NCBI GenBank assembly: GCA_964640175.1
Contig: CAZXFW010000002.1
Coordinates: 198,257-262,256 of the forward strand
DNA from: an uncultured Polyangiales bacterium
GTDB taxonomy: Bacteria; Myxococcota_A; Polyangia; Polyangiales; GCA-016699535
Direction of reading: 5' to 3'
Length of the DNA: 64,000 nucleotides
Shown: positions 14,032 through 29,532 of the stretch, piece by piece
Layout of the letters: each line of letters opens with the position of its first letter
How positions within the stretch are numbered: the first letter of the stretch is position 1
Notes under the pieces: generated by a model
Databases searched by the model: none
Told to the model about the DNA's origin: nothing
What the model saw: the letters and a program-made list of their open reading frames with translations, nothing else
Translations under genes and position numbers: made by a program

Positions 14032-15320
14032 AACGGGCCTAATACGCCTGCGCCAATATCACGACGAAACTGTGCCCCTTCAAACTGGAGTTCCGATGCT
14101 GCACGATAGGCCCGATCTGCAGCGCTTTCCATGGTCTCGCCCACTGCGGTGACCGTCAGCACACGCCCTCCTGCTGTGACGATACGCCCATGCTCTTTGC
14201 GTGTGCCCGCATGAAACACCTGCACACCCGGCACCTTGCATGCGTCCTCAAAACCAGTGATGGGTAGCCCTTGAGGTCCTGCGCCAGGGTATCCGCCCGA
14301 AGCCAGCACCACACACAATGCAGCCGGAGCTTCCCATTGAGGCACTTCATGCGCCAAGCTTCCGCACGCAGCCTTCTCCAACAAAGACAACAGATCACCT
14401 TGATACCGTGCTAAAAGCACCTCAGTTTCTGGGTCACCCAAACGCACGTTGTACTCCAACACCATGGGCTTACCCTCCACAATCATAAGCCCCACAAACA
14501 GCGCCCCCCGAAACGGTTGGCCTTCCGCTTTCATCCCCTTTAAGGTGGGCTCCACCACATGGGTGCGAATCGTTTCTTCCATGGCCAACGTCACCACCGG
14601 AGTGGGGGAATACGCGCCCATGCCCCCGGTGTTCGGACCGCGATCACCCTCCAACAAACGTTTGTGATCCTGTGCAGCGGCCAAAGGAACTGCGCACTCG
14701 CCATCAGAAATTACATGGTAGCTGACTTCCGGCCCGCACAACCGTTCTTCAATCACAATTGCGTTCCCAGCCTCACCAAACGCGCGTGCTTCCATGATGT
14801 AATGTACCGCTTCCTCGGCTTCTTGCTGGTTACTGGCCACCACAACTCCTTTGCCCGCCGCAAGGCCATCCGCTTTAATCACCAAAGGTCGGCGTTCTGC
14901 ACGCACGTACCGAAGTGCTTCAGACGCATCTTCAAACACCTCAAACGACGCCGTGGGAATCTTCCAGCGTTGCATAAACTGCTTAGCAAACACTTTGGAG
15001 CCCTCCAGCCTGGCTGCAGCTTTGCTTGGGCCAAACGCTGTCACCCCCACATCGCCAAGCGCATCAACCACCCCCTGGACCAACGGGGCTTCAGGCCCTA
15101 CCACGACAAAATCGACTGATAGCTCGCGCACACACGCTTTAACCGCGTCGATGTCCAGAATATCCAGAGGAACCGAGGTGGCTATTGCTTCGGTGCCTGC
15201 GTTTCCGGGAGCACACCAAAGCTTGCCAACATGCGGCGACGTTGAAAGACGCCAACAAAGCGCATGCTCTCTTGCGCCCGCACCCAACACCATGACCCGT
15301 CGTTGATCCGCCATGCGCAT
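14028..15320 (-). CDS. purD: phosphoribosylamine--glycine ligase
   Basis: VMVLGAGAREHAL, VVVGPEAPL, ATP-grasp core, GDRGPNTGGMGAYSP, FAGT-like FHAGT. Confidence 0.95.
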   Translation of the reverse strand: MRMADQRRVMVLGAGAREHALCWRLSTSPHVGKLWCAPGNAGTEAIATSVPLDILDIDAVKACVRELSVDFVVVGPEAPLVQGVVDALGDVGVTAFGPSKAAARLEGSKVFAKQFMQRWKIPTASFEVFEDASEALRYVRAERRPLVIKADGLAAGKGVVVASNQQEAEEAVHYIMEARAFGEAGNAIVIEERLCGPEVSYHVISDGECAVPLAAAQDHKRLLEGDRGPNTGGMGAYSPTPVVTLAMEETIRTHVVEPTLKGMKAEGQPFRGALFVGLMIVEGKPMVLEYNVRLGDPETEVLLARYQGDLLSLLEKAACGSLAHEVPQWEAPAALCVVLASGGYPGAGPQGLPITGFEDACKVPGVQVFHAGTRKEHGRIVTAGGRVLTVTAVGETMESAADRAYRAASELQFEGAQFRRDIGAGVLGPL

Positions 15321-16891
15321 TAATGCCTAAAGTGCCGCACGCCTGTCAGTAGCATCGCCATGCCGGCACGGTTCGCTGCATCGATAACGTCGGCGTCTTT
15401 TTTAGAACCACCGGGCTGAACCACCGCTGTGATGCCCGCCTCAGCCGCACGCTCGACACCATCAGGAAACGGAAAAAACGCATCCGAAGCCATCACGCTG
15501 CCTTGAGCCTCAGGGCCAGCTTTTTCGACAGCCAGCTGCACGCTGACCACACGTGACATCTGACCTGCGCCCACCCCTACGGTGCGCAGTACAGGGCTGT
15601 CCTTAGCCAGCACAATCGCATTGGACTTAACGTGCTTACACACTTTCCATGCAAAATCGAGCGCTGCAAGTTCCTGCGCTGTCGGAGGCCGCTTACTCAC
15701 CACCTTCGCGTCTGCCACCTCGTTCGCTGCCGTGGCATCCCGATCCTGAACCACAAAACCACCACTAACCCGCTTGACCTGCATCGCCTGATGACCCGCA
15801 TCAAGCCACTGCCCCGTCGCTAACAAACGAAGACTGCTTTTCGTGCGTAGCAACGCCAGCGCTTCAGCGCTAAATGCCGGAGCAATGATGCACTCAAGAA
15901 ATGTCTCCTTTAAAAGTTCGGCTGTAGCCAGATCGACAGAACGATTCAACGCGACAATGCCACCGAACGCGCTTACCTCGTCTGCTTGACGCGCACGTAA
16001 ATACGCATCTGCCAGCCGAGATGCCTGCGCCACCCCACATGGATTGGTATGTTTGACGATCACCGCAGCAGGTTCACTAAACTCACGCACCGCATCGAGC
16101 GCCGCATCGACATCCACCAGATTATTAAAAGACAGCTCCTTGGCCCCTTGGCCCAAAGACTCCGACTGAGCAAGGCTGCCCAAAGGAGCTTCCCGCTCCA
16201 GATAAAACGCACCGGATTGATGGGGATTTTCGCCATAGCGTAAGCCGTACGCCTTGGTAAGCGTCAGCGTGAGCGTCTCCTGAAACCCATCCTCGGAACG
16301 TGTGCCTTGAAGCTTGCTGGCGAAATATTCCGCTATCTCTTTGTCATAGCGGGCCGTGTGCGCAAACGCCTTGGCAGCCAACTCTTCACGCAACGCAAGC
16401 GTTGTGCCCCCTTCCTTACGCAAGGCCGCCAACACGGGCTGGTAGTCTTCAGGGTTCACCAACACCGTGACCCGAGGGTAGCTCTTAGCCGCGCTCCGCA
16501 GCATGGAAGGCCCGCCAATATCGATGTTTTCGAGGATCTCCTCATGAGGCGCCTTGCGAGCCACCGTCCGGGCAAATGGGTATAAATTTACAACAACAAG
16601 ATCAATAGGTTTCCCGCCAATACTAGAAAGTTGTTCAAGATCATCAGCGCGCTCACGCATCAGTATTCCTCCATGAACACGCGGATGCAGTGTCTTGACC
16701 CGTCCTTCCATAATCTCTGGCGAACCGGTGTACTCTGCCACGTCAACAACACGCAGCCCGGCCTTACGCAATGCCTCGGCAGTCCCCCCGGTGGACAGAA
16801 TTTCGATATCCAACGACACCAGCCCCTGGGCCAGCTCCACCAACCCCTGTTTATCGGATACTGAAATTAACGCCCGACGTATGTGATGCAT
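15320..16891 (-). CDS. purH: bifunctional AICAR transformylase / IMP cyclohydrolase
   Basis: RALISVSDKQG, TGGTA, KTLHPRVHGGIL, VVNLYPF, C-terminal ASDAFFPF..D..QPGGS. I place the start at ATG 16891 (GGAGG just upstream) rather than the TTG at 16954. Confidence 0.95.
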   Translation of the reverse strand: MHHIRRALISVSDKQGLVELAQGLVSLDIEILSTGGTAEALRKAGLRVVDVAEYTGSPEIMEGRVKTLHPRVHGGILMRERADDLEQLSSIGGKPIDLVVVNLYPFARTVARKAPHEEILENIDIGGPSMLRSAAKSYPRVTVLVNPEDYQPVLAALRKEGGTTLALREELAAKAFAHTARYDKEIAEYFASKLQGTRSEDGFQETLTLTLTKAYGLRYGENPHQSGAFYLEREAPLGSLAQSESLGQGAKELSFNNLVDVDAALDAVREFSEPAAVIVKHTNPCGVAQASRLADAYLRARQADEVSAFGGIVALNRSVDLATAELLKETFLECIIAPAFSAEALALLRTKSSLRLLATGQWLDAGHQAMQVKRVSGGFVVQDRDATAANEVADAKVVSKRPPTAQELAALDFAWKVCKHVKSNAIVLAKDSPVLRTVGVGAGQMSRVVSVQLAVEKAGPEAQGSVMASDAFFPFPDGVERAAEAGITAVVQPGGSKKDADVIDAANRAGMAMLLTGVRHFRH

Positions 16892-17200
16892 GCCTCCATC
16901 CCCTTGTAACTGACTTGCTGGCACGCTGATACTCCCTGAACTGTCACGGGTCAACCAAGACCCAGACTGCCAAACGCCAAATTACTCTTCGGACGCAGCA
17001 AGCTCGCTGATTAGCGTACGCAAGAAGCATTCTAATTTGTCAGGCGTCTTCCCGGCACTAGAATGCGTTAAACACACTTAGCCCTCACGCTGGGGTCTTT
17101 ACACCCCGTACGTAAGCACCCTCTCTTCAAAAATTGTTCAGCAACTGTGGTAACTTGAGAAGCATTTGGCAAGCGTTGTTCTAGCATGTTTTTTGCATAA

Positions 17201-19912
17201 ATGCCGAGCATAACCATGCACGTGTGGGATACATGTTTACGTTGGCCTTCATTGGCTACAGTCATAGCAATCACGTCACTTTCGGGATGCACGCTTTTAC
17301 CTGGCTTGGATGCTTCCGGAGATAGCGAAGGTCAAGGTGCGATTACACATGCATGCTACTATCCGCGCGACTGTGCTGCGGATGGTACGGAGACATGTGT
17401 GCTTACCCAATCTGGCAACCGTTGCATGTCTCTCACCGAGGCAACGTATGAAGTAGAGCCCGTGGCAACTTCATTAGAACGTTTTATTCAAACCACCGAT
17501 CACGATTCAGAAACACTCGACCGTCTTGCAAACGACCTGCCCGAAGCCCCTAGCGACATCTCCCTTCAAAGCTACCGACATATCGCTGAGAATATGCTCA
17601 AGCCTTTGGTGCTTCGCGATCGCGTAGGACTCCAAGAAGTTCAAGCGTTCATTGACAGGGGTAGTGCCCAACCCGATGCCGCCCCATCCCCAGGCTACAA
17701 ATACGAAGCTTATCGCGCGCTTTACGCGGCCAAATACAATCAAAACAAAAAACTCAAAGCCGCTCTCGGGCGTCTCTTTAACTTCATGCCGGATAAACCA
17801 TTGTTCACACGGCATGACGATGGCACCGCTGGTGTCAGCATGTTGGAAGACTGTGGCTTGACCCTGAAGAGCCATCCGTTTTCTGGCACAACCCATGCCA
17901 GCGACAGCAACGTCCATGCATGCCTTGAAGCCCTTGATCGTTTGAGCGTGCTCATGAAAGACGCCATGGCGCTTTCAGAGTATCCTTTATGGCCCACTAA
18001 TTTCAAAGAACGCCTGGATCAGGAACGTATGCTAGTGCGCTACGCCCTAGCCACCGGAATTAATCCCAAAGGCGCAGAGGGCATCAACCGAATGCATACG
18101 TTGCGCCATCGCATCGATTCATTGTTTGCTTCCGTCCAGGCAGACTATGTACTTTTGATACAACTGCTTGATGAGGCACTCCGCGGATTTGGCATCGTAG
18201 AAATGCCTATCAGCATCACTCCGATTCACCCTGACACCCCACCGGAATCCTACGAAGTCAACGACGCCTTTACATTCACTCTTGGACAATGGGCCAGTGG
18301 TGAATGGTACGCCATTCGCCAAGCACAGCAAAACATGCCTGCCGACGAAGATATCCCGCTCGAACCTTGGCAACGGTACTTTGAAGGAGCGTTCAAGCAA
18401 GCGGTGGCGCAGTCCATGGCCATCAACGAATTCTTGTATCAAAAGCTTCATTTTCAAGGCGGTTATAGCGATGCCGACACATGGAAGCTCACTCCTTTCA
18501 TCGAAGCCACGGGCATACTTCACATGCCCGAGTACGCAGCCTTTTCTGGCATTCACCAACAGTTGCTCTTGCAAATCCAAAACGAACTCGACGTAGCCCA
18601 ACGACAGATGTGGTCTGACTTAGGATTATGCGCCCTTGGCATTGTGGGAGGTGCAGCTGCGGGGTTTGCCCTGGGCGCACCCATGGCAGGCGCCAAAGTA
18701 GGAGGCGCTGTGCTGTGTTCCATCAGCGCTTACCACGGCATTCAAGAGGCACAAGCACTTGCACAGGTGCTTGGCAACCTTCAAACATTGGCATTTTTCG
18801 GCATGAAAAGCGCCTATGCTTCTATCCTTACCTTGGATGACATCACAAACCGTTTCAAATGGTCAGTGTTCTTTGTCGGCCTTGACGTGATGGGTGCCAG
18901 CATTGATGTCACGGACATCAGCCGAGGCGTGCCTGAACTGCTAGATGCCCTCGAACACACGGCTCCTAAAGCCGTGTCACGGTTAGCCCAAGCGTGGGAG
19001 CAAAGCTATGCTCGGCATTTGCTCCATGGTGGGCCTTTGCAGATGGCACCTATGGCGAGTGAGCTTACCGAACACGGAGCGGAGCTCATCCGATTATCCA
19101 GCAACGGGGCCAATGCCACTGTCATGATTCGGGATCCTGGACTACGTGGGGACATTCGCGAATTTATTAAAGAATGGGCTCGATCGGAGACCCCAGATTA
19201 TTGGGATCAGATTCCTTTGTCGGCAGGCCACCTCTATCGTGACATTTGGAAAGCCAGCGATGACCTGTCTGCGATGCAATTAAGAAAAATTATGATCCAA
19301 GCACGCTATGAGCTGGGAGATTACAAATTCTTGATGACTCAATCAGGCTTCTATAGCTTTCCGGAAGCTTTTGGCGCCGCCAACGACATTTTACATCAAC
19401 ATCAACTGCCGAACGTATTAGACACCTTTACGCAAGACCTTGCGAATGGTGTTTCCAGGGAAGATCTATATCTCAGGCGTGTCTTTCGTGACGGCTCAGG
19501 GACCCCCATTTTTCTCCATAACTATTATCCCAATCACTATGTGGGGCTCTACGTCGACCCCGTCATTCCGACCGCAGGTTGGACCGCGTTGGCTGATGTC
19601 ACCAATGAGCTGCGTGCCTTGGCGCGCACGAACCCACACCCCAGCGAAGCTGTGATGGACCTGCTTGCAGAGTATGCCTATGTTGCCTCTGGTCTTTTAC
19701 CCTTTCCACGCATCAACTGGGGACTCTTTTACCAAGTGATGCTTCAGGCTTATCAGATCTTTGGGTTGAACCCACGCTACTCCACCGGGCTCGATCATTT
19801 CATGTGGGCAGCGCCCACCCTGGATGCTGCCAAACGCATCTTTAGAGTATGGCATTCAGGGGTGATGGATCGCAGCATCTATCTCGAAGCCCGGCGTTTC
19901 TTTCGGTATTAG
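17201..19912 (+). CDS. large hypothetical lipoprotein with central glycine-zipper segment
   Basis: 903 aa. Lipobox ITSLSGC, Cys-rich stretch after the signal, Gly/Ala hydrophobic segment GIVGGAAAGFALGAPMAGAKVGGAV. No family recognised. Alternative ATG at 17216. Confidence 0.6.
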   Translation: MPSITMHVWDTCLRWPSLATVIAITSLSGCTLLPGLDASGDSEGQGAITHACYYPRDCAADGTETCVLTQSGNRCMSLTEATYEVEPVATSLERFIQTTDHDSETLDRLANDLPEAPSDISLQSYRHIAENMLKPLVLRDRVGLQEVQAFIDRGSAQPDAAPSPGYKYEAYRALYAAKYNQNKKLKAALGRLFNFMPDKPLFTRHDDGTAGVSMLEDCGLTLKSHPFSGTTHASDSNVHACLEALDRLSVLMKDAMALSEYPLWPTNFKERLDQERMLVRYALATGINPKGAEGINRMHTLRHRIDSLFASVQADYVLLIQLLDEALRGFGIVEMPISITPIHPDTPPESYEVNDAFTFTLGQWASGEWYAIRQAQQNMPADEDIPLEPWQRYFEGAFKQAVAQSMAINEFLYQKLHFQGGYSDADTWKLTPFIEATGILHMPEYAAFSGIHQQLLLQIQNELDVAQRQMWSDLGLCALGIVGGAAAGFALGAPMAGAKVGGAVLCSISAYHGIQEAQALAQVLGNLQTLAFFGMKSAYASILTLDDITNRFKWSVFFVGLDVMGASIDVTDISRGVPELLDALEHTAPKAVSRLAQAWEQSYARHLLHGGPLQMAPMASELTEHGAELIRLSSNGANATVMIRDPGLRGDIREFIKEWARSETPDYWDQIPLSAGHLYRDIWKASDDLSAMQLRKIMIQARYELGDYKFLMTQSGFYSFPEAFGAANDILHQHQLPNVLDTFTQDLANGVSREDLYLRRVFRDGSGTPIFLHNYYPNHYVGLYVDPVIPTAGWTALADVTNELRALARTNPHPSEAVMDLLAEYAYVASGLLPFPRINWGLFYQVMLQAYQIFGLNPRYSTGLDHFMWAAPTLDAAKRIFRVWHSGVMDRSIYLEARRFFRY

Positions 19913-20036
19913 CTTAGTTAGCGCCCGTTGGCACTACCCTCTCGCAACGCGGCTCATCGGTAGCCGAGCTTGGTGACTCATCGAGCAGGTTTTTTTCTAC
20001 GAAGTACGCCAAAGTGGTTGCACGACGGTAAGCTCC

Positions 20037-21773
20037 TCATAGTCCGAGCCGTTGTCGTGCAAGCTCAATAGCTCGGCGACAAATTTCTTCGTATTGTTCG
20101 GGAAATTGGCTGCCATCAAGAAGGCTCTCCAACCGTGTCAAGGCTTCATCGAGGGCCTGTGGTGATGTGGTTTGGGAGGTCAGCGTATCGACAAATTCCT
20201 GTGCCATGTTTTCAACAGCGGCTTCAACATTCCCACCATTTTCTGAAGCCTCGTAGGCTGCGGTAGCCACCGTCGCAGCACCTCGTATATGATCTAGAAC
20301 ATCCGCAAACGCTTCGGCCGTCTGACTGGCTTGCCGATTTTCTTCTTTGACCCAAACCTTGGCCTGCTCCATCCATGCGCGAAGCTCTTCAACCGACATC
20401 CCAAGCTGTTCTTCGAATTCAGCAAGTTCGTCATCGGTTAATGCAGAAACCTCATCAAGCCAGGGAAGCGCACCTTGGTCTAAGTGGTAAGCCATTTCAC
20501 GATACTTGCGTTCTTGCTCGGAAAGTTGCGCTAAAACGCTATCGATATCCGCGGCTATGTTAGCCGCGGGGAAGGCAGCGCCTGAGATATGGCCATACAA
20601 TGCGTCACGCAGAGTTTGATCATCCAGCGTTTCTCCGGAAGGAATCATGTGTCGCGGTAAAGGTTGACCAAAAATAAGGTCTCCTCGGTCAGAATGAAAT
20701 GCAATCGGTGGCTGGTACACAGGCGTTATCGCAGGTGAATAGATGAAGCTTAGGGGCGTTACCGTACGGGCATTGACACCTGCATAGACACTGACAAGCA
20801 TGCGCCATAAGCGAACGTCGTCTGTGAGATACACCTGGGAAGACGATGAAGCCGTTTTAGACGGGGAATCTGCTGTAAGCTTAGCAATCAGGGCATAGCC
20901 CGCAAGGACAACCCCTACGATCGCCACTCCACCACATAAGACTATCCCTAGCGCATTCGAACACAGCCCTGCCGACGTTGACGGATTCATGAGGGTGCCA
21001 ACGGCAAACACGTCCACTCCCGGCACAGCTGGGTGCGTATCGTCCCATTCGTACACGGCAAAGTCAGTCTGCCGAGCCCCCGTGCTATCTTGAAAGCACA
21101 ATCCCGGCACGGCAGAGCGTTGAAACCCTTTTGACTGCCAATCCTCCCTACCTAAGGGTGCCACATCAAGACGCTGTTCCGAGATATTAAACTCCAGCGC
21201 TCCATGTTGGAAATGTTGCCGAAGGATGCCGCGTTGATTGTACAAGAAGGCGCCGCCGTAGGCCGGGCCAAGCAAAGACACCACAGTGGGATTGGCTTGC
21301 AGATAGGCAGCAAATCCATGTGCATATGTTACTCCACCAATCGTAGATTCGTTACCTACGGGCGTCGTGCGTTTTAGACAGGCCTGGCCACTCAGCTTCG
21401 CACATGCTGACTCCCCTATTGAAGCAACGGTGACTTGATTGGTTGAAGCAGTCCACTTCAATGCAAAATGTTCAAATGGCTGAAAATAGGTGTGTTCCTC
21501 GGAATCCATGACAGACGCGTTGTCGAGCGGATCACCAAAAATTTCTGTAAGGTTTTGGTTTTGAACAAAGTCTTCAAACGGACCACATAGCGTGAGCGCA
21601 GGGACGCCAAACGACGTGTTGCTGTCAAAGGTGAGTTTTTCAACTCGATATCCCGGAAACAAAGCTTGGGCCTGCTCTAGACCGCCTTTGGATGCGGTTT
21701 CAGAAGCATTAAGAGAGCATGCCGCTACGATAAAGGCACACATGTAGGGAGATACCTGAATCCAAATACGCAT
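20037..21773 (-). CDS. hypothetical single-pass membrane lipoprotein
   Basis: Start moved to ATG 21773 (MRIWIQVSPYMCAFIVAACS, lipobox IVAAC). About 300 aa ectodomain, one TM (IVLCGGVAIVGVVLAGYALIA), then an acidic helical cytoplasmic tail. Confidence 0.6.
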   Translation of the reverse strand: MRIWIQVSPYMCAFIVAACSLNASETASKGGLEQAQALFPGYRVEKLTFDSNTSFGVPALTLCGPFEDFVQNQNLTEIFGDPLDNASVMDSEEHTYFQPFEHFALKWTASTNQVTVASIGESACAKLSGQACLKRTTPVGNESTIGGVTYAHGFAAYLQANPTVVSLLGPAYGGAFLYNQRGILRQHFQHGALEFNISEQRLDVAPLGREDWQSKGFQRSAVPGLCFQDSTGARQTDFAVYEWDDTHPAVPGVDVFAVGTLMNPSTSAGLCSNALGIVLCGGVAIVGVVLAGYALIAKLTADSPSKTASSSSQVYLTDDVRLWRMLVSVYAGVNARTVTPLSFIYSPAITPVYQPPIAFHSDRGDLIFGQPLPRHMIPSGETLDDQTLRDALYGHISGAAFPAANIAADIDSVLAQLSEQERKYREMAYHLDQGALPWLDEVSALTDDELAEFEEQLGMSVEELRAWMEQAKVWVKEENRQASQTAEAFADVLDHIRGAATVATAAYEASENGGNVEAAVENMAQEFVDTLTSQTTSPQALDEALTRLESLLDGSQFPEQYEEICRRAIELARQRLGL

Positions 21774-21943
21774 GAAGCGGCATCCAAGCAAATTACATGC
21801 CAGCAAAATTTCTAATAATTTGAGTGGATTAGTAGGGTTAACTGTCTCCAGTTGGACGTATGCGTGGGGCAAATTCAACCTACCCTAGATACAGACGCAC
21901 ATCTTTCATGGCAGCTCCCATAGCAGCTTGGTAAACTGCCTGG

Positions 21944-22537
21944 ATGGCGCTTCGGGAAGCTCTTGTTGGATGGCTAGTGTGTGTAGGCTGTATCGTCGCA
22001 TGCGGTAACAATGATCCGCCCAGTTCTCTAGAGGATGCAGGCACAGATGGCACGCTCAGCGACGGCCCCCTCCAGGATACCTTTAATCCTGACAATACTC
22101 CCCTTGTGACGTTGGATGCGGCTGGGATTAGTGCCGCATGTGCCGAAGTCGCAACCATTGCAGATAATTCGTCAGACATTTTCACTGCGCAAAATCTCTG
22201 TGAAGTCATTGCTCTATCCCAGGGAGACATTGATTCTTCCTCAGAGTGCAATGTGTATGTCGCAGATTGCCGTGAAGAATTCGAAGTCATCGATCCGTTG
22301 ATCGATGCCAAAAACCGCTGCTCCAAAGAAATCAAAGCCCTGGACAGCGGTTGCCAGGCAGGCATCCACGACCTTACAGCGTGTATCCAAGCAACTGCGG
22401 ATATGTTCCGCACGCTCATGGAAAGCACAGACTGTAATGACGTAGGCATTAATCCACCCCATGCCGCCGTTCCACTGGAATGCGGACCCATCTACGCATG
22501 TGACATGTTCAAGTTCCTGGAAGAGTACGAGCAGTAG
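21944..22537 (+). CDS. small Cys-rich secreted lipoprotein
   Basis: Lipobox IVACG, ten further cysteines at regular spacing, acidic composition. Preferred over the antisense 21880..22491 ORF, which is Ser/Arg-rich. Confidence 0.6.
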   Translation: MALREALVGWLVCVGCIVACGNNDPPSSLEDAGTDGTLSDGPLQDTFNPDNTPLVTLDAAGISAACAEVATIADNSSDIFTAQNLCEVIALSQGDIDSSSECNVYVADCREEFEVIDPLIDAKNRCSKEIKALDSGCQAGIHDLTACIQATADMFRTLMESTDCNDVGINPPHAAVPLECGPIYACDMFKFLEEYEQ

Positions 22538-24497
22538 AATTGGCATCACGCCAGCGGTAGTACAACGGCAAGCATGCCACTAAAGCCACGACAAAGGTCA
22601 TCGCAGCTTGAGCTCCTAGCGACTCCAGACTTGCATACACCCCCATTGCTGGGATTTCAGGACACGCAATCGACGTATAGGAAATCACGCCAGCTTCCTG
22701 AAGTGAATGAACCCCGTTGCCCACGAGCACTACAGTAAGAAGCGCAAGCAAACTACTCGATGCCAGCATAAATTGTCGAAGAGGCAGGCGTTGGCTAATG
22801 GCTCGCATGACCATCGCAATTACACCAAGAGCAAGAATACCAGATAGTGCACCCATCCACACCCATTGTTGATGGTTACCTGCCTCAAGCACAAGCGCCT
22901 TAAAGAACAGCACCACTTCAAAGGCTTCCCGATATACAGAAATAAAAGACAACACAAAAATCGCAGCTTTAGAACTCACATTGTCAGTCGACTGCTCCCA
23001 CCAGCGCATTAACAATCCCACCCAACGTTTAGCCGTGAGCTGGCCTAACATCCAGTGGGTGACTCCAAGCAACATCACTGCGGCAAGTAGCGCGACAATG
23101 CCTTCAGCAAGCTCGCGTGCCATACCACTTAAGATGTCCGCAAGCACAAACCAGGTAATCAAACCACACACAAGAGCGCTAAGCCAACCTCCATGAATCC
23201 AATACTGCAATGCAGGCTCTTCACGCTTGCGTGCCATCCCGAGCAAAACCGCAATCAAGAGCACACCCTCTACCCCCTCACGCAATGCTATCAGCAGCGC
23301 AGCGAAAAAAGAGGTGTTGCGGCTGGAGGGAGCCTGCGCCATCTCACTCACAATACGCTCTACCTCAGAAGTGGTCCTCACCAGCTCCGAATATTTTCCC
23401 TCTTGAGCAGCAAGCTGTTGCAATCGCAACATTGCCCGTTCAACGCGTTGAACTTTTGCTGGCTCAGCAAGCTTCAAGGAACTCTCGTACGGTTCAAACC
23501 CATCCAGATAAGCTGCGATAAAATGTGTTTTGGCCTGAATGAAATCGTGATTATTATAAGCTTTTAGGCCTGCGCCAATGCGTGAACGCAATACCGCAAA
23601 ATCCGTGTTGCCTGTGTTAAATTCAACCACGCGACGTATGTATGCAACCACTTGCCGTTGGGTCGCTGCATCGTTAACGTTCGCCCTAAGTTCACCAAGC
23701 AACTCCGTGTCACTCTGATACACAGGACTTTTGTGAGCCATCAATACATTCGGTTCACGTGCAACAAGCGCTGCTCCTTTGGCAGCATCTTTTGGCGTAT
23801 GACGCCATGCAACAATGTAGCGTGCCAATGCCCACCGATCCGCTTCGGACAATTGCGTAAAACCCACCATGGCCGTTCCAGCGATGCCATGCGTGATGGC
23901 ATGATACGCACGAAGCGGAGAAATATCTTGCATGACCTTTGGATCATGAAAATTGGCAGGTGGCGGCTTAAAACTGGCAGATTGAGGTCCATCCGCTTTA
24001 CCGGTCGAGCCATGGCACGCAGTGCATCCTTGCGTACGGAACAACTCAGCGGCACGTTTCCAATCGCTGGGCCGTGGAGGAGTCAACGTAAGTGCAAAAC
24101 GCTGCATGAGTACCGCTTTGATGGCACGACAGCCCTCCTGTATCGTGGAAGGCGGAGCTTTAAGCTCAATCGCTTTTTTCAATTCCAGAAATCGGGGCTG
24201 AAGATCACTCGCTTCACCTGGCAACAAACCCATGGCTTGCTCCAGCAAGAACTTCTGTTCTTCATACTCTCCTTGATTCAGAAGCTGCCCTTGATCGTTA
24301 ACTGCAACGCGGTAATCCCCTTCGATATAGCTCAGGATACCTAGAATCTGCTGCGGGGCTTGTGCGTGAGCTGAAGTGCAAAAGACAAACCACACTCCAC
24401 AAAAGATCATCCCACCAAAAATGGATTGAAACAGCACTCGTTGACGAATCGCATGAAGTTTTGTCACGTTGGAGTGGTTCCATAGCAGCTCGGGCAC
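22509..24497 (-). CDS. cytochrome c / FTR1-family iron permease fusion
   Basis: Heme motif CTACHG in the N-terminal periplasmic part. Two FTR1 REXXE motifs (LREGVEGV, YREAFEVV) lie in a 7-TM C-terminal half. Confidence 0.85.
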   Translation of the reverse strand: MPELLWNHSNVTKLHAIRQRVLFQSIFGGMIFCGVWFVFCTSAHAQAPQQILGILSYIEGDYRVAVNDQGQLLNQGEYEEQKFLLEQAMGLLPGEASDLQPRFLELKKAIELKAPPSTIQEGCRAIKAVLMQRFALTLTPPRPSDWKRAAELFRTQGCTACHGSTGKADGPQSASFKPPPANFHDPKVMQDISPLRAYHAITHGIAGTAMVGFTQLSEADRWALARYIVAWRHTPKDAAKGAALVAREPNVLMAHKSPVYQSDTELLGELRANVNDAATQRQVVAYIRRVVEFNTGNTDFAVLRSRIGAGLKAYNNHDFIQAKTHFIAAYLDGFEPYESSLKLAEPAKVQRVERAMLRLQQLAAQEGKYSELVRTTSEVERIVSEMAQAPSSRNTSFFAALLIALREGVEGVLLIAVLLGMARKREEPALQYWIHGGWLSALVCGLITWFVLADILSGMARELAEGIVALLAAVMLLGVTHWMLGQLTAKRWVGLLMRWWEQSTDNVSSKAAIFVLSFISVYREAFEVVLFFKALVLEAGNHQQWVWMGALSGILALGVIAMVMRAISQRLPLRQFMLASSSLLALLTVVLVGNGVHSLQEAGVISYTSIACPEIPAMGVYASLESLGAQAAMTFVVALVACLPLYYRWRDANSTARTLPGT

Positions 24498-28284: not shown

Positions 28285-29532
28285 TTGCCCATTTTCCCTC
28301 AGGTAGCATACAAAGACGGCGTGCCTTCCGAAACCCGTTGCTCATCTCGCAATCTGTTCGCGGCGAGCGTAGTCCTGTTAGTTTTTTCTGTTCTACGCGG
28401 AATACAGCTTCCGAATACTTGGTCTACAACACATATGTTGGTGAACTACGACCATGGATTCGTCAAACGTGGGTTACTCGGTGCCTTACTCAAATTTCTA
28501 AACATCCCTTACAGGTACGATTTCAGTTTCTTCGCGATCTTAAGCTTGGCCATTTTTGCCGTCAGCCTCGGGTTATTCATCGCCATCATACGCAACTTGC
28601 TATATAGCAAGAATCCTGACGCTATCGCATCTTCGTTTGTATACGCTTCAAGCCTCGGCATCTTATTTCTTGCTGCTACAGTAGGCTACTGGGATCATCT
28701 CGGACTGCTTCTTAGCTTAATTGCTTTACACATCAACGGCATCCATCGTCGCCTGTGGTTCATTGGCATCGCGTTTGGAATCGCCATATTGATCCATGAA
28801 GCTCTTGCACTCATGTTTTACCCACTTCTCTGCATATCGGTACTTCTTAACCATGAGCAACACCCCGTTAAGTCAGTATACCTTGGCCTCGTAACCCTTT
28901 CGGTGGTTCTCGTAGTGCTGACAGGAATCATGTCCGGAGCAACGATTTCTGCCGAACACGCCGGCGCACTTTACCAGCAGGTGCGAACACAAACAGACTT
29001 TACGCCCAATGATATTTTCTTCTGGGTTCTTTCTCAAAACGTGCAAAACAATGCTGCCGTCATGAGGGCATGGTGGCATGATCCGATACGATGGAAAGAT
29101 ATGGGCTGGTCTCTTGCGGCCACTTTGCCTCCAACCTTATTTTTCACAACCCTGGCAATTCGACGATTAAGTTACTATTGCAAACTCAAACTCTTTTGGT
29201 TATTGACGGCTGCCAGTGCACTCACACCCCTCGCTTTGCATGGCATAGGTTGGGATTTTGAACGCTGGAACGCGCTGAGCATTACAACAAGTTTCTTGGC
29301 ATTTGTGGTGGTTCACCAAGCCTTCCCTCATTCAATACCGCAGGAATATCGACCCAAAACCGAATCATTTCTTCCCGTGGCACTTGTCCTTTTAGTGATT
29401 GGAGCAGCTTCTAAAATAACTCTGCTTGATGATAATCCCATACGCTCTTATCCATTCAAGCAAGAGGTCATGTGTATAACCTCGGCAACTAAACCGATAC
29501 GTGCGTGTCTACAGAACCAAAACACTCAGTGA
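28285..29532 (+). CDS. polytopic membrane protein, function unknown
   Basis: About 10 hydrophobic helices. The start codon is uncertain (TTG 28285 or GTG 28321). The 3' end overlaps the dapB stop by 7 nt, convergently. Confidence 0.55.
   Translation: MPIFPQVAYKDGVPSETRCSSRNLFAASVVLLVFSVLRGIQLPNTWSTTHMLVNYDHGFVKRGLLGALLKFLNIPYRYDFSFFAILSLAIFAVSLGLFIAIIRNLLYSKNPDAIASSFVYASSLGILFLAATVGYWDHLGLLLSLIALHINGIHRRLWFIGIAFGIAILIHEALALMFYPLLCISVLLNHEQHPVKSVYLGLVTLSVVLVVLTGIMSGATISAEHAGALYQQVRTQTDFTPNDIFFWVLSQNVQNNAAVMRAWWHDPIRWKDMGWSLAATLPPTLFFTTLAIRRLSYYCKLKLFWLLTAASALTPLALHGIGWDFERWNALSITTSFLAFVVVHQAFPHSIPQEYRPKTESFLPVALVLLVIGAASKITLLDDNPIRSYPFKQEVMCITSATKPIRACLQNQNTQ

Follow-up and report, generated by a model that had tools for sequence, protein, structure and literature searches.

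The window analysed here, a 64,000-nucleotide (nt) stretch of DNA from an uncultured Polyangiales bacterium, carries three adjacent genes for envelope lipoproteins of 903, 578 and 197 amino acids (aa), referred to below as p903, p578 and p197. The cluster is flanked by purH and purD on one side and by an FTR1-cytochrome c gene, tgt and queA on the other. The gene layout was in agreement with a preliminary description of the sequence: the three open reading frames (ORFs) are adjacent and each encodes a lipobox (the 578-aa protein after correction of its start), housekeeping genes lie on both sides, the p903 and p578 genes are convergent with a spacer of 124 nt, the p578 and p197 genes are divergent, and the p197 gene runs into the FTR1 gene. 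The features of the locus are as follows.

17037-17064, plus strand: promoter-like site upstream of the p903 gene (TTGTCA-16-TAGAAT, 10 of 12 matches)
17201-19912, plus strand: p903 gene, 903-aa lipoprotein of a small modular family; coding-type guanine-plus-cytosine (GC) content by codon position of 0.59/0.43/0.54
19968-19995, plus strand: terminator-like hairpin and T-run within the 124-nt spacer, 56 nt past the p903 stop codon
20037-21773, minus strand: p578 gene, 578-aa lipoprotein
21774-21943, no strand: divergent intergenic region between p578 and p197, 170 nt
21944-22537, plus strand: p197 gene, 197-aa cysteine-rich lipoprotein, its 3' end overlapping the FTR1 gene by 29 nt
22509-24497, minus strand: FTR1-cytochrome c gene (context), FTR1-family iron permease with an N-terminal cytochrome c domain

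In the public annotation p903 starts five codons further in, giving a product of 898 aa. The p578 gene could be extended to a longer ORF (20037-21878, 613 aa from a TTG), but we favoured the ATG at 21773, because the public protein P0003 uses the same start and the signal peptide of the orthologue aligns with it; the 578-aa product then begins MRIWIQVSPYMCAFIVAAC. An antisense ORF of 203 aa over p197 (21880-22491, minus strand) was rejected as a shadow ORF, with a non-coding GC by position of 0.49/0.58/0.50 and a single cysteine. The three genes are probably separately transcribed, and p903 has promoter-like and terminator-like sites of its own. Promoter-like sites were not commoner in the region than in shuffled sequences, and for the site at 17037-17064 it is the position alone that is suggestive.

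Among the 47 likely genes surveyed in the window, four passed a simple lipobox test, and three of these were the adjacent p903, p578 and p197 genes; the fourth, a Sua5/YrdC-like gene, was a false positive. The preliminary description had regarded the three genes as an island, by eye richer in A+T than purH or tgt. Their GC content (0.516-0.520) is indeed below that of purH (0.562), and of purD (0.575), but it equals that of tgt (0.524), exceeds that of FTR1 (0.507) and queA (0.499), and is typical of the window (gene mean 0.533, standard deviation 0.021). Codon usage, expressed as z against the rest of the window, was average or better for the three genes (+0.76, -0.41 and +1.29). The composition is thus housekeeping-like, there is no compositional island, and both measures argue against an acquired module. 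Around the three genes we found only short chance matches in place of flanking repeats, and no mobile-element genes flank the cluster; no tRNA genes, Rfam elements or paralogues were detected in the window.

The idea of an island was further weakened by the gene order in a relative (L008), which keeps all three genes in order; judged by the criteria of the preliminary description, it is largely refuted. There the order reads queA-tgt-(CLC)-FTR1-p197 homologue-(four extra lipoprotein genes)-p578 homologue-(RCC1 lipoprotein)-p903 orthologue, with a CLC channel gene inserted between tgt and FTR1-cytochrome c. Identity to the window is 80% for TGT, 66% for QueA and 65% for FTR1. The p903 orthologue has 942 aa, and its last 122-157 residues are 60-68% identical to those of p903, on par with QueA and FTR1. 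The p903 C-terminus is therefore conserved like its housekeeping neighbours, which is the opposite of what is expected from a diversifying toxin tip. Compared with their neighbours (65-80%), the homologues of p578 (37% identity along the entire protein) and p197 (43%) have diverged much faster. From this synteny it follows that all three genes were at the site in the common ancestor, and the site itself tends to gain and lose lipoprotein genes, as a hotspot. As for the extra genes of L008 (374-9736), one encodes a lipoprotein with RCC1 repeats and another a trypsin-like lipoprotein that is frameshifted; a third lipoprotein, of 468 aa, terminates in the NWG domain described below and has kept the HPF motif intact. 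The others encode an exported protein that contains a trehalose-phosphatase domain and a protein of 650 aa whose transmembrane region is rich in glycine.

Searches of Pfam, NCBIfam, PADLOC, PHROGs and PDB sequences with p903, p578 and p197 returned nothing significant, and what the profile libraries listed stayed below threshold and was regarded as noise (CIS_TMP, E = 0.0035; ZorA coiled coil, E = 0.007; SMI1/SUKH, E = 0.36 over 24 residues). Sequence and profile searches of PDB with p903, p578, the p903 family, p578 plus its orthologue, the p197 family and the C-terminal NWG domain of p903 were equally without significant matches. A word-indexed search of 5.8 billion proteins retrieved each protein itself and, for p903, additionally P0002, and an exhaustive HMMER search of 1.84 billion representative proteins, with p903 and p197 joined together as the query, found 16 relatives. 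Searches of viral contigs, plasmids and phages brought up no relatives, and metagenome scans gave no match. The earlier label of orphans thus holds in that no curated family covers the proteins, but a few homologues do exist. The three proteins represent three small, uncatalogued envelope protein families, almost without known relatives, and their host lineage is rarely sampled.

The p903 family could be aligned over seven proteins (p903, P0002, P0011, P0014, P0015, P0016 and P0018). They have in common an N-terminal carrier of about 640 aa, in which p903 shares 49% identity with P0002 and 20-30% with the other five. Past residue 640 or so, the seven proteins split into at least four unrelated C-terminal types, and those other than NWG match no family, toxin families included. 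The features of p903 are as follows.

17201-17290, plus strand: signal peptide with lipobox L-S-G-C at residues 27-30 (Cys30); the Cys is aligned in P0002
17354-17425, plus strand: cysteine-rich knot with C52, C58, C66 and C75, from the alignment of the seven family members
18620-18736, plus strand: glycine-zipper hydrophobic hairpin, residues 474-512, with G480/G484/G488/G492, then G497/G501, and the invariant C506
18857-18916, plus strand: further conserved hydrophobic segment, residues 553-572 (WSVFFVGLDVMGASIDVTDI), with conserved Asp residues
19547-19909, plus strand: C-terminal NWG domain, approximately residues 783-903, six helices in the model

The cysteines C52, C58, C66, C218 and C241 are invariant in all seven family members, which points to an oxidising, extracytoplasmic location. 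The carrier also has the motifs A-W-K-L-x-P, within a long helical stretch, and A-F-F-G. The membrane-inserting segment noted in the preliminary description corresponds to the hydrophobic, glycine-rich stretch at residues 474-512. We take this hairpin to resemble, by sequence pattern, the SlyB/Pcp glycine-zipper lipoproteins and the hairpins of pore-forming colicins and of the diphtheria toxin T domain. With these lipoproteins and hairpin translocation domains p903 would share a lipid anchor and a Gly-x3-Gly-x3-Gly-x3-Gly hairpin inside a helical region. It differs from the glycine-zipper, Rick_17kDa and colicin families in being far larger and in having extra domains, and it had no Pfam match at E<=1, the fourfold GxxxG pattern being the only visible sign.

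The closest full-length relative of p903, P0002, lies on a contig of 3.3 kb (L001) with neighbours quite different from those in the window: a radical-S-adenosylmethionine-like N-terminus upstream on the opposite strand and, starting 18 nt downstream, a short ORF that looks like an aminotransferase C-terminus (L001 3160-3264 and 3-98). P0015 (927 aa; L028 161-2944) combines a p903-type carrier with a different C-terminus of about 420 aa; its gene sits among housekeeping genes, next to prmC and to genes for a tetratricopeptide-repeat protein and a type II secretion ATPase, and has no partner gene. The three sequencing runs with P0015 are exactly those with the window strain, which makes it probable that P0015 is an anciently diverged paralogue from the same genome. 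The P0015 C-terminus shows ExE, HxH and RxGxExR-like motifs. An amidoligase identity for the C-terminus of P0015 and P0016, suggested by its motifs, found no support in Pfam, NCBIfam or PDB profile searches. P0011 is carried on CP064980.1 (L012), a metagenome-assembled genome (MAG) of Myxococcota, which has been treated among Myxococcota genomes (PMC11208604); the presence of this family member there pointed to Myxococcota as the probable lineage of the window. Of two pairs of repeats on L012, the second, of 172 nt (15127-15298 and 16195-16366), duplicates the end of a nearby 243-aa gene; the first is considered below.

The C-terminal domain of p903 is characterised by the motif PFxxxNWGxFYxVxxQAxxxFGLxPRYSxGLD...W..G...RY. 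On p903-type carriers it was found in p903, P0011 and P0018, but it also ends the shorter proteins P0013, P0019, P0020, P0021 and the 468-aa protein of L008, so that it is present on at least three shorter lipoprotein architectures besides the p903-type carrier. In all five shorter proteins the N-terminal signal is the sole hydrophobic segment, and only P0013 lacks a canonical lipobox. Since the NWG domain ends such simple lipoproteins, it is exported in them, and the hydrophobic region of p903 most likely makes an even number of membrane passes or forms a latent hairpin.

An AlphaFold2 model of the NWG domain, made from an alignment of nine sequences, was confident, with a predicted local distance difference test (pLDDT) score of 79 and a predicted template-modelling (pTM) score of 0.75. 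In this model, the PFxxxNW motif sits in a loop (residues 62-71) between two helices (47-61 and 72-84). Fic and Doc proteins are characterised by the signature HxFx(D/E)GNGR, the Fic motif being HxFx(D/E)GNGRxxR with a catalytic histidine. The corresponding sequence of p903 reads L-P-F-P-R-I-N-W-G, with Leu in place of the catalytic His, which is retained in two of the ten NWG members (P0017, with HPFxxGNWG, and the 468-aa L008 protein). The Pfam Fic family (PF02661) gave no match to p903 and a sub-threshold one to P0017 only (E = 0.02-0.05, 15 bits against a cut-off of 24), and the NWG profile found nothing among PDB sequences. With Foldseek, all matches of the model in PDB had E>2, and Fic, Doc, AvrB, Bep and FicD made up a large share of this weak list (TM scores of 0.38-0.52); in BFVD there was no match with E<1. 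Using hhalign against our own alignments of Doc proteins (from phage P1 and others) and Fic proteins (from E. coli and plasmids), the PFxxxN(W)G loop fell in register with the Doc motif (P = 0.058) and the Fic motif (P = 0.04), at a probability of about 1%. These signals form a consistent lead towards the Fic/Doc superfamily; they are weak and not significant, and membership is not demonstrated by them.

The NWG domain is thus like the Fido toxins (P1 Doc, VbhT/Bep, FicD) in being small and all-helical, with a P-F-x-x-x-N-(W)-G loop between two helices that occupies the position and register of HxFx(D/E)GNGR. It differs from them in that p903 lacks the catalytic His and the arginines of GNGR, the domain is exported to where no ATP is available, and it has no antitoxin or inhibitory-helix partner.

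In p578, the lipobox is followed by some 250 exported residues and then by one strong transmembrane helix; the rest, about 280 residues, is an acidic helical tail that gave only coiled-coil noise matches. A resemblance of the exported domain to LGFP repeats, seen by eye, had no Pfam support. Two features were mapped on its gene.

21717-21773, minus strand: signal peptide with lipobox V-A-A-C (Cys19); C-S-L-x-A-S-E is kept in the orthologue
20880-20963, minus strand: transmembrane helix, residues 271-298, containing the strongest hydrophobic 19-mer (Kyte-Doolittle value of 2.49)

In p197, the lipobox I-V-A-C (Cys20) is followed by an acidic linker and a disulfide-rich core. The ten cysteines reported earlier for this protein were found beyond the lipobox cysteine, 6-20 residues apart (residues 66, 86, 102, 109, 126, 137, 147, 164, 180 and 186). 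Nine of the ten are invariant in two homologues, P0009 (51-55% identity) and P0010 (43-44%), Cys109 being absent from P0009. Of three lineages, two (the window and L008) have the p197 gene tail-to-tail with FTR1, and in the third, L006, no FTR1 is nearby. As a candidate FTR1 accessory of the EfeO, P19 or FtrB kind, p197 showed no family or PDB match, and it is encoded on the strand opposite to the permease. The 29-nt overlap with the convergent neighbour is exact both in the window (22509-22537, FTR1) and in L006 (10527-10555, Pur_DNA_glyco), and the conserved ...FLEEY tail of p197 apparently keeps the antisense frame open. The permease itself is a fusion with cytochrome c (Pfam FTR1, 6e-21; Cytochrom_C, 7e-10) that is retained in L008, and a scan of GTDB genomes with it found as the only relative a protein of 29% identity in a Bacteriovoracaceae MAG.

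The preliminary description had proposed a toxin and partner module of the SitA/SitI type. SitA proteins have a lipobox, a family-specific escort domain and a C-terminal nuclease, with sitI immediately downstream; the systems are restricted to genomes with traAB and are often associated with mobile elements (PMC5562445, PMC8546572), and the nucleases are countered by SitI in the cytoplasm (PMC8546572). With SitA, the cargo of outer-membrane exchange in Myxococcus, p903 shares the type II signal with a lipobox, an occurrence in Myxococcota-related genomes and, as architecture only, a conserved N-terminal module with exchangeable, unrelated C-termini. It differs from SitA in having no downstream immunity gene, no sitB-like gene, no nuclease C-terminus and no mobile-element context, in being syntenic and conserved between relatives, and in its internal hydrophobic helices. 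In a comparison made via profile libraries only, no similarity to the escort families was seen, as p903 had no NCBIfam or Pfam family at E<=1. Neither a nuclease nor another toxin domain was detected at the p903 C-terminus by Pfam, NCBIfam, PADLOC, PDB profile searches or Foldseek. The p903 gene is not followed by a co-oriented gene: after the 124-nt spacer with its terminator-like hairpin comes the convergent p578. An immunity-like neighbour was likewise absent beside four of the five relatives examined (the L008 orthologue, P0002, P0015 and P0013). As to the fifth, a 78-aa ORF after P0011 (L012) was rejected as an immunity gene, being merely the duplicated 3' end of the upstream 548-aa gene. 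P0011, P0002, P0015 and P0013 also have no p578-like or p197-like neighbour, and no link of p578 or p197 to immunity was found other than the SMI1/SUKH signal mentioned above (E = 0.36 over 24 residues).

The broader idea of a toxin fared somewhat better, since p903 is modular in the manner of polymorphic toxins, a concept reportedly due to Zhang, Aravind et al. in 2012. The p903 family has a conserved N-terminal carrier with variable C-terminal modules, at least four types of them, and one of these, NWG, recurs on several different carriers. On the other hand, the C-terminus does not differ at the same locus between close relatives (60-68% identity in L008) but is stable between orthologues, and the family has no immunity gene, no orphan C-terminal cassettes and no linkage to type V, VI or VII secretion systems (T5SS/T6SS/T7SS) or Rhs. 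In its architecture, p903 varies on designs already known from modular lipoproteins and polymorphic toxins; the families themselves are new.

Taken together, we read the locus as three native, vertically inherited and independent genes for envelope lipoproteins, with p903 as a modular envelope effector or adaptor, an interpretation which in our judgement has about an even chance of being correct. In such a scheme, the lipid anchor and the hairpin would keep p903 in the envelope and display its variable C-terminal domain or, possibly, insert and deliver it. The specificity of p903 would then reside in its swappable end, and the protein may act as an effector or adaptor, its toxicity being only putative. 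The p578 protein, with its acidic, coiled-coil-like tail, and p197, whose gene tends to remain beside that of the FTR1 iron permease, would be independent envelope proteins.

Several observations weigh against this interpretation. The functions of p903, p578 and p197 are all putative. The synteny is based on one relative, L008, which was the sole sufficiently close one available, and the more distant L006 has the p197 homologue only, in a different context (Sua5 and a DNA glycosylase gene). An AlphaFold2 model of the whole p903 protein, made from a two-sequence alignment, was unusable (pLDDT of 33), so that the topology and the idea of a hairpin derive from hydropathy alone, and the three hydrophobic segments might leave the C-terminus in the cytoplasm. 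Finally, P0011 lies between direct repeats of 167 nt, 97% identical (L012 9493-9659 and 12691-12857), which are copies of the 3' end of the 548-aa gene upstream. The repeats could reflect a cassette-like insertion or an assembly artefact; in the former case the p903 family would be able to move.

Alternatively, the p903 family may consist of delivered toxins, contact-dependent or predatory, in which the hairpin is a built-in translocation module, comparable to that of a colicin, the diphtheria toxin T domain or a SitA escort domain, that carries a Fic/Doc-derived head into the other cell. The conserved N-terminus with its unrelated C-termini, the export of the NWG domain and its presence on several architectures, the weak Fic/Doc signals (from Pfam for P0017, from Foldseek and from the hhalign register) and the direct repeats around P0011 are all consistent with it, and an immunity gene would be unnecessary because the domain would never enter the cytoplasm of the producer. 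We nevertheless consider this unlikely: every Fic/Doc signal is below significance, the catalytic His is replaced by Leu in p903 and kept in only two of the ten members, the remaining C-terminal types match no toxin family, the C-terminus of the orthologue, 60-68% identical, is not diversifying between relatives, and the genes have a native composition in a housekeeping context. A more far-reaching variant, to which we would give a still smaller chance, regards the p903 family as undescribed lipid-anchored modular effectors of low-GC Myxococcota-like bacteria, whose disulfide-stabilised carrier would use its glycine-zipper hairpin to deliver interchangeable enzymatic heads into neighbours or prey, among them a histidine-less Fic/Doc head and maybe an amidoligase-like one. 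No immunity gene would be needed here because the heads would be inert in the ATP-free periplasm of the producer.

A module of the SitA/SitI type, with p903 as the outer-membrane-exchange toxin and p578 and/or p197 as the immunity or accessory partner, appears very improbable to us. The lipoboxes on all three proteins, the modularity of p903, the p903 and p578 orthologues that are still neighbours in L008 and the origin of P0011 from a Myxococcota MAG (PMC11208604) would fit it. Its partners, however, do not behave as such: p578 is convergent behind a terminator-like site and no co-oriented gene follows p903, homologues of p578 and p197 are missing beside P0011, P0002, P0015 and P0013, L006 has a p197 homologue without p903 or p578, and both proteins bear export signals of their own, whereas SitI is cytoplasmic (PMC8546572). 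The lack of a nuclease domain, of any Pfam or NCBIfam match and of a mobile-element context is no less at odds with it. The three proteins could also be ordinary structural or physiological components of the envelope, p197 as an accessory of FTR1-cytochrome c iron uptake and p903 and p578 as lineage-specific scaffold or trans-envelope proteins. This would agree with the vertical inheritance and native codon usage, with the tail-to-tail position of p197 and FTR1 in two lineages, with the p903 C-terminus being conserved like housekeeping genes, and with p578 joining a lipid anchor, a transmembrane helix and a long acidic helical tail. It seems doubtful to us, as p197 is on the strand opposite to FTR1, lies beside a DNA glycosylase gene with no FTR1 nearby in L006 and has no similarity to partners of the EfeO, P19 or cupredoxin type. 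Moreover, sequence divergence is much faster in p578 and p197 (37-43% identity) than in the neighbouring proteins (65-80%), and proteins with a purely structural role do not usually exchange unrelated C-terminal domains on one carrier.

Should p903-type proteins be delivered effectors, the modular lipoprotein toxins would comprise, besides SitA, a second lineage that is structurally unrelated to it. The p903-type proteins would also exemplify antagonism in which no immunity gene is linked, and the toxin repertoire would gain a Fido-like domain that is exported and lacks the histidine. If they are not effectors, three uncatalogued envelope families have been defined, and what was taken for an island would be an old chromosomal hotspot of lipoprotein genes. 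In either case, a lipobox together with orphan status is insufficient for calling a toxin module.

Two further observations concern the window outside the cluster. A part of the window that includes the three genes (5320-31773) was found as identical DNA (100% or one mismatch) in at least four independent public sequencing runs (SRR14932672, SRR34579711, SRR1027651 and SRR31392765). Within the window, an ORF of 415 aa at 28285-29532 (plus strand), which matched no family, stands out for the lowest GC content (0.469) and for a codon usage that is the most atypical (z = -2.4). It is more island-like than the lipoprotein cluster itself, yet L008 has an orthologue (45-46% identity) at the same position.

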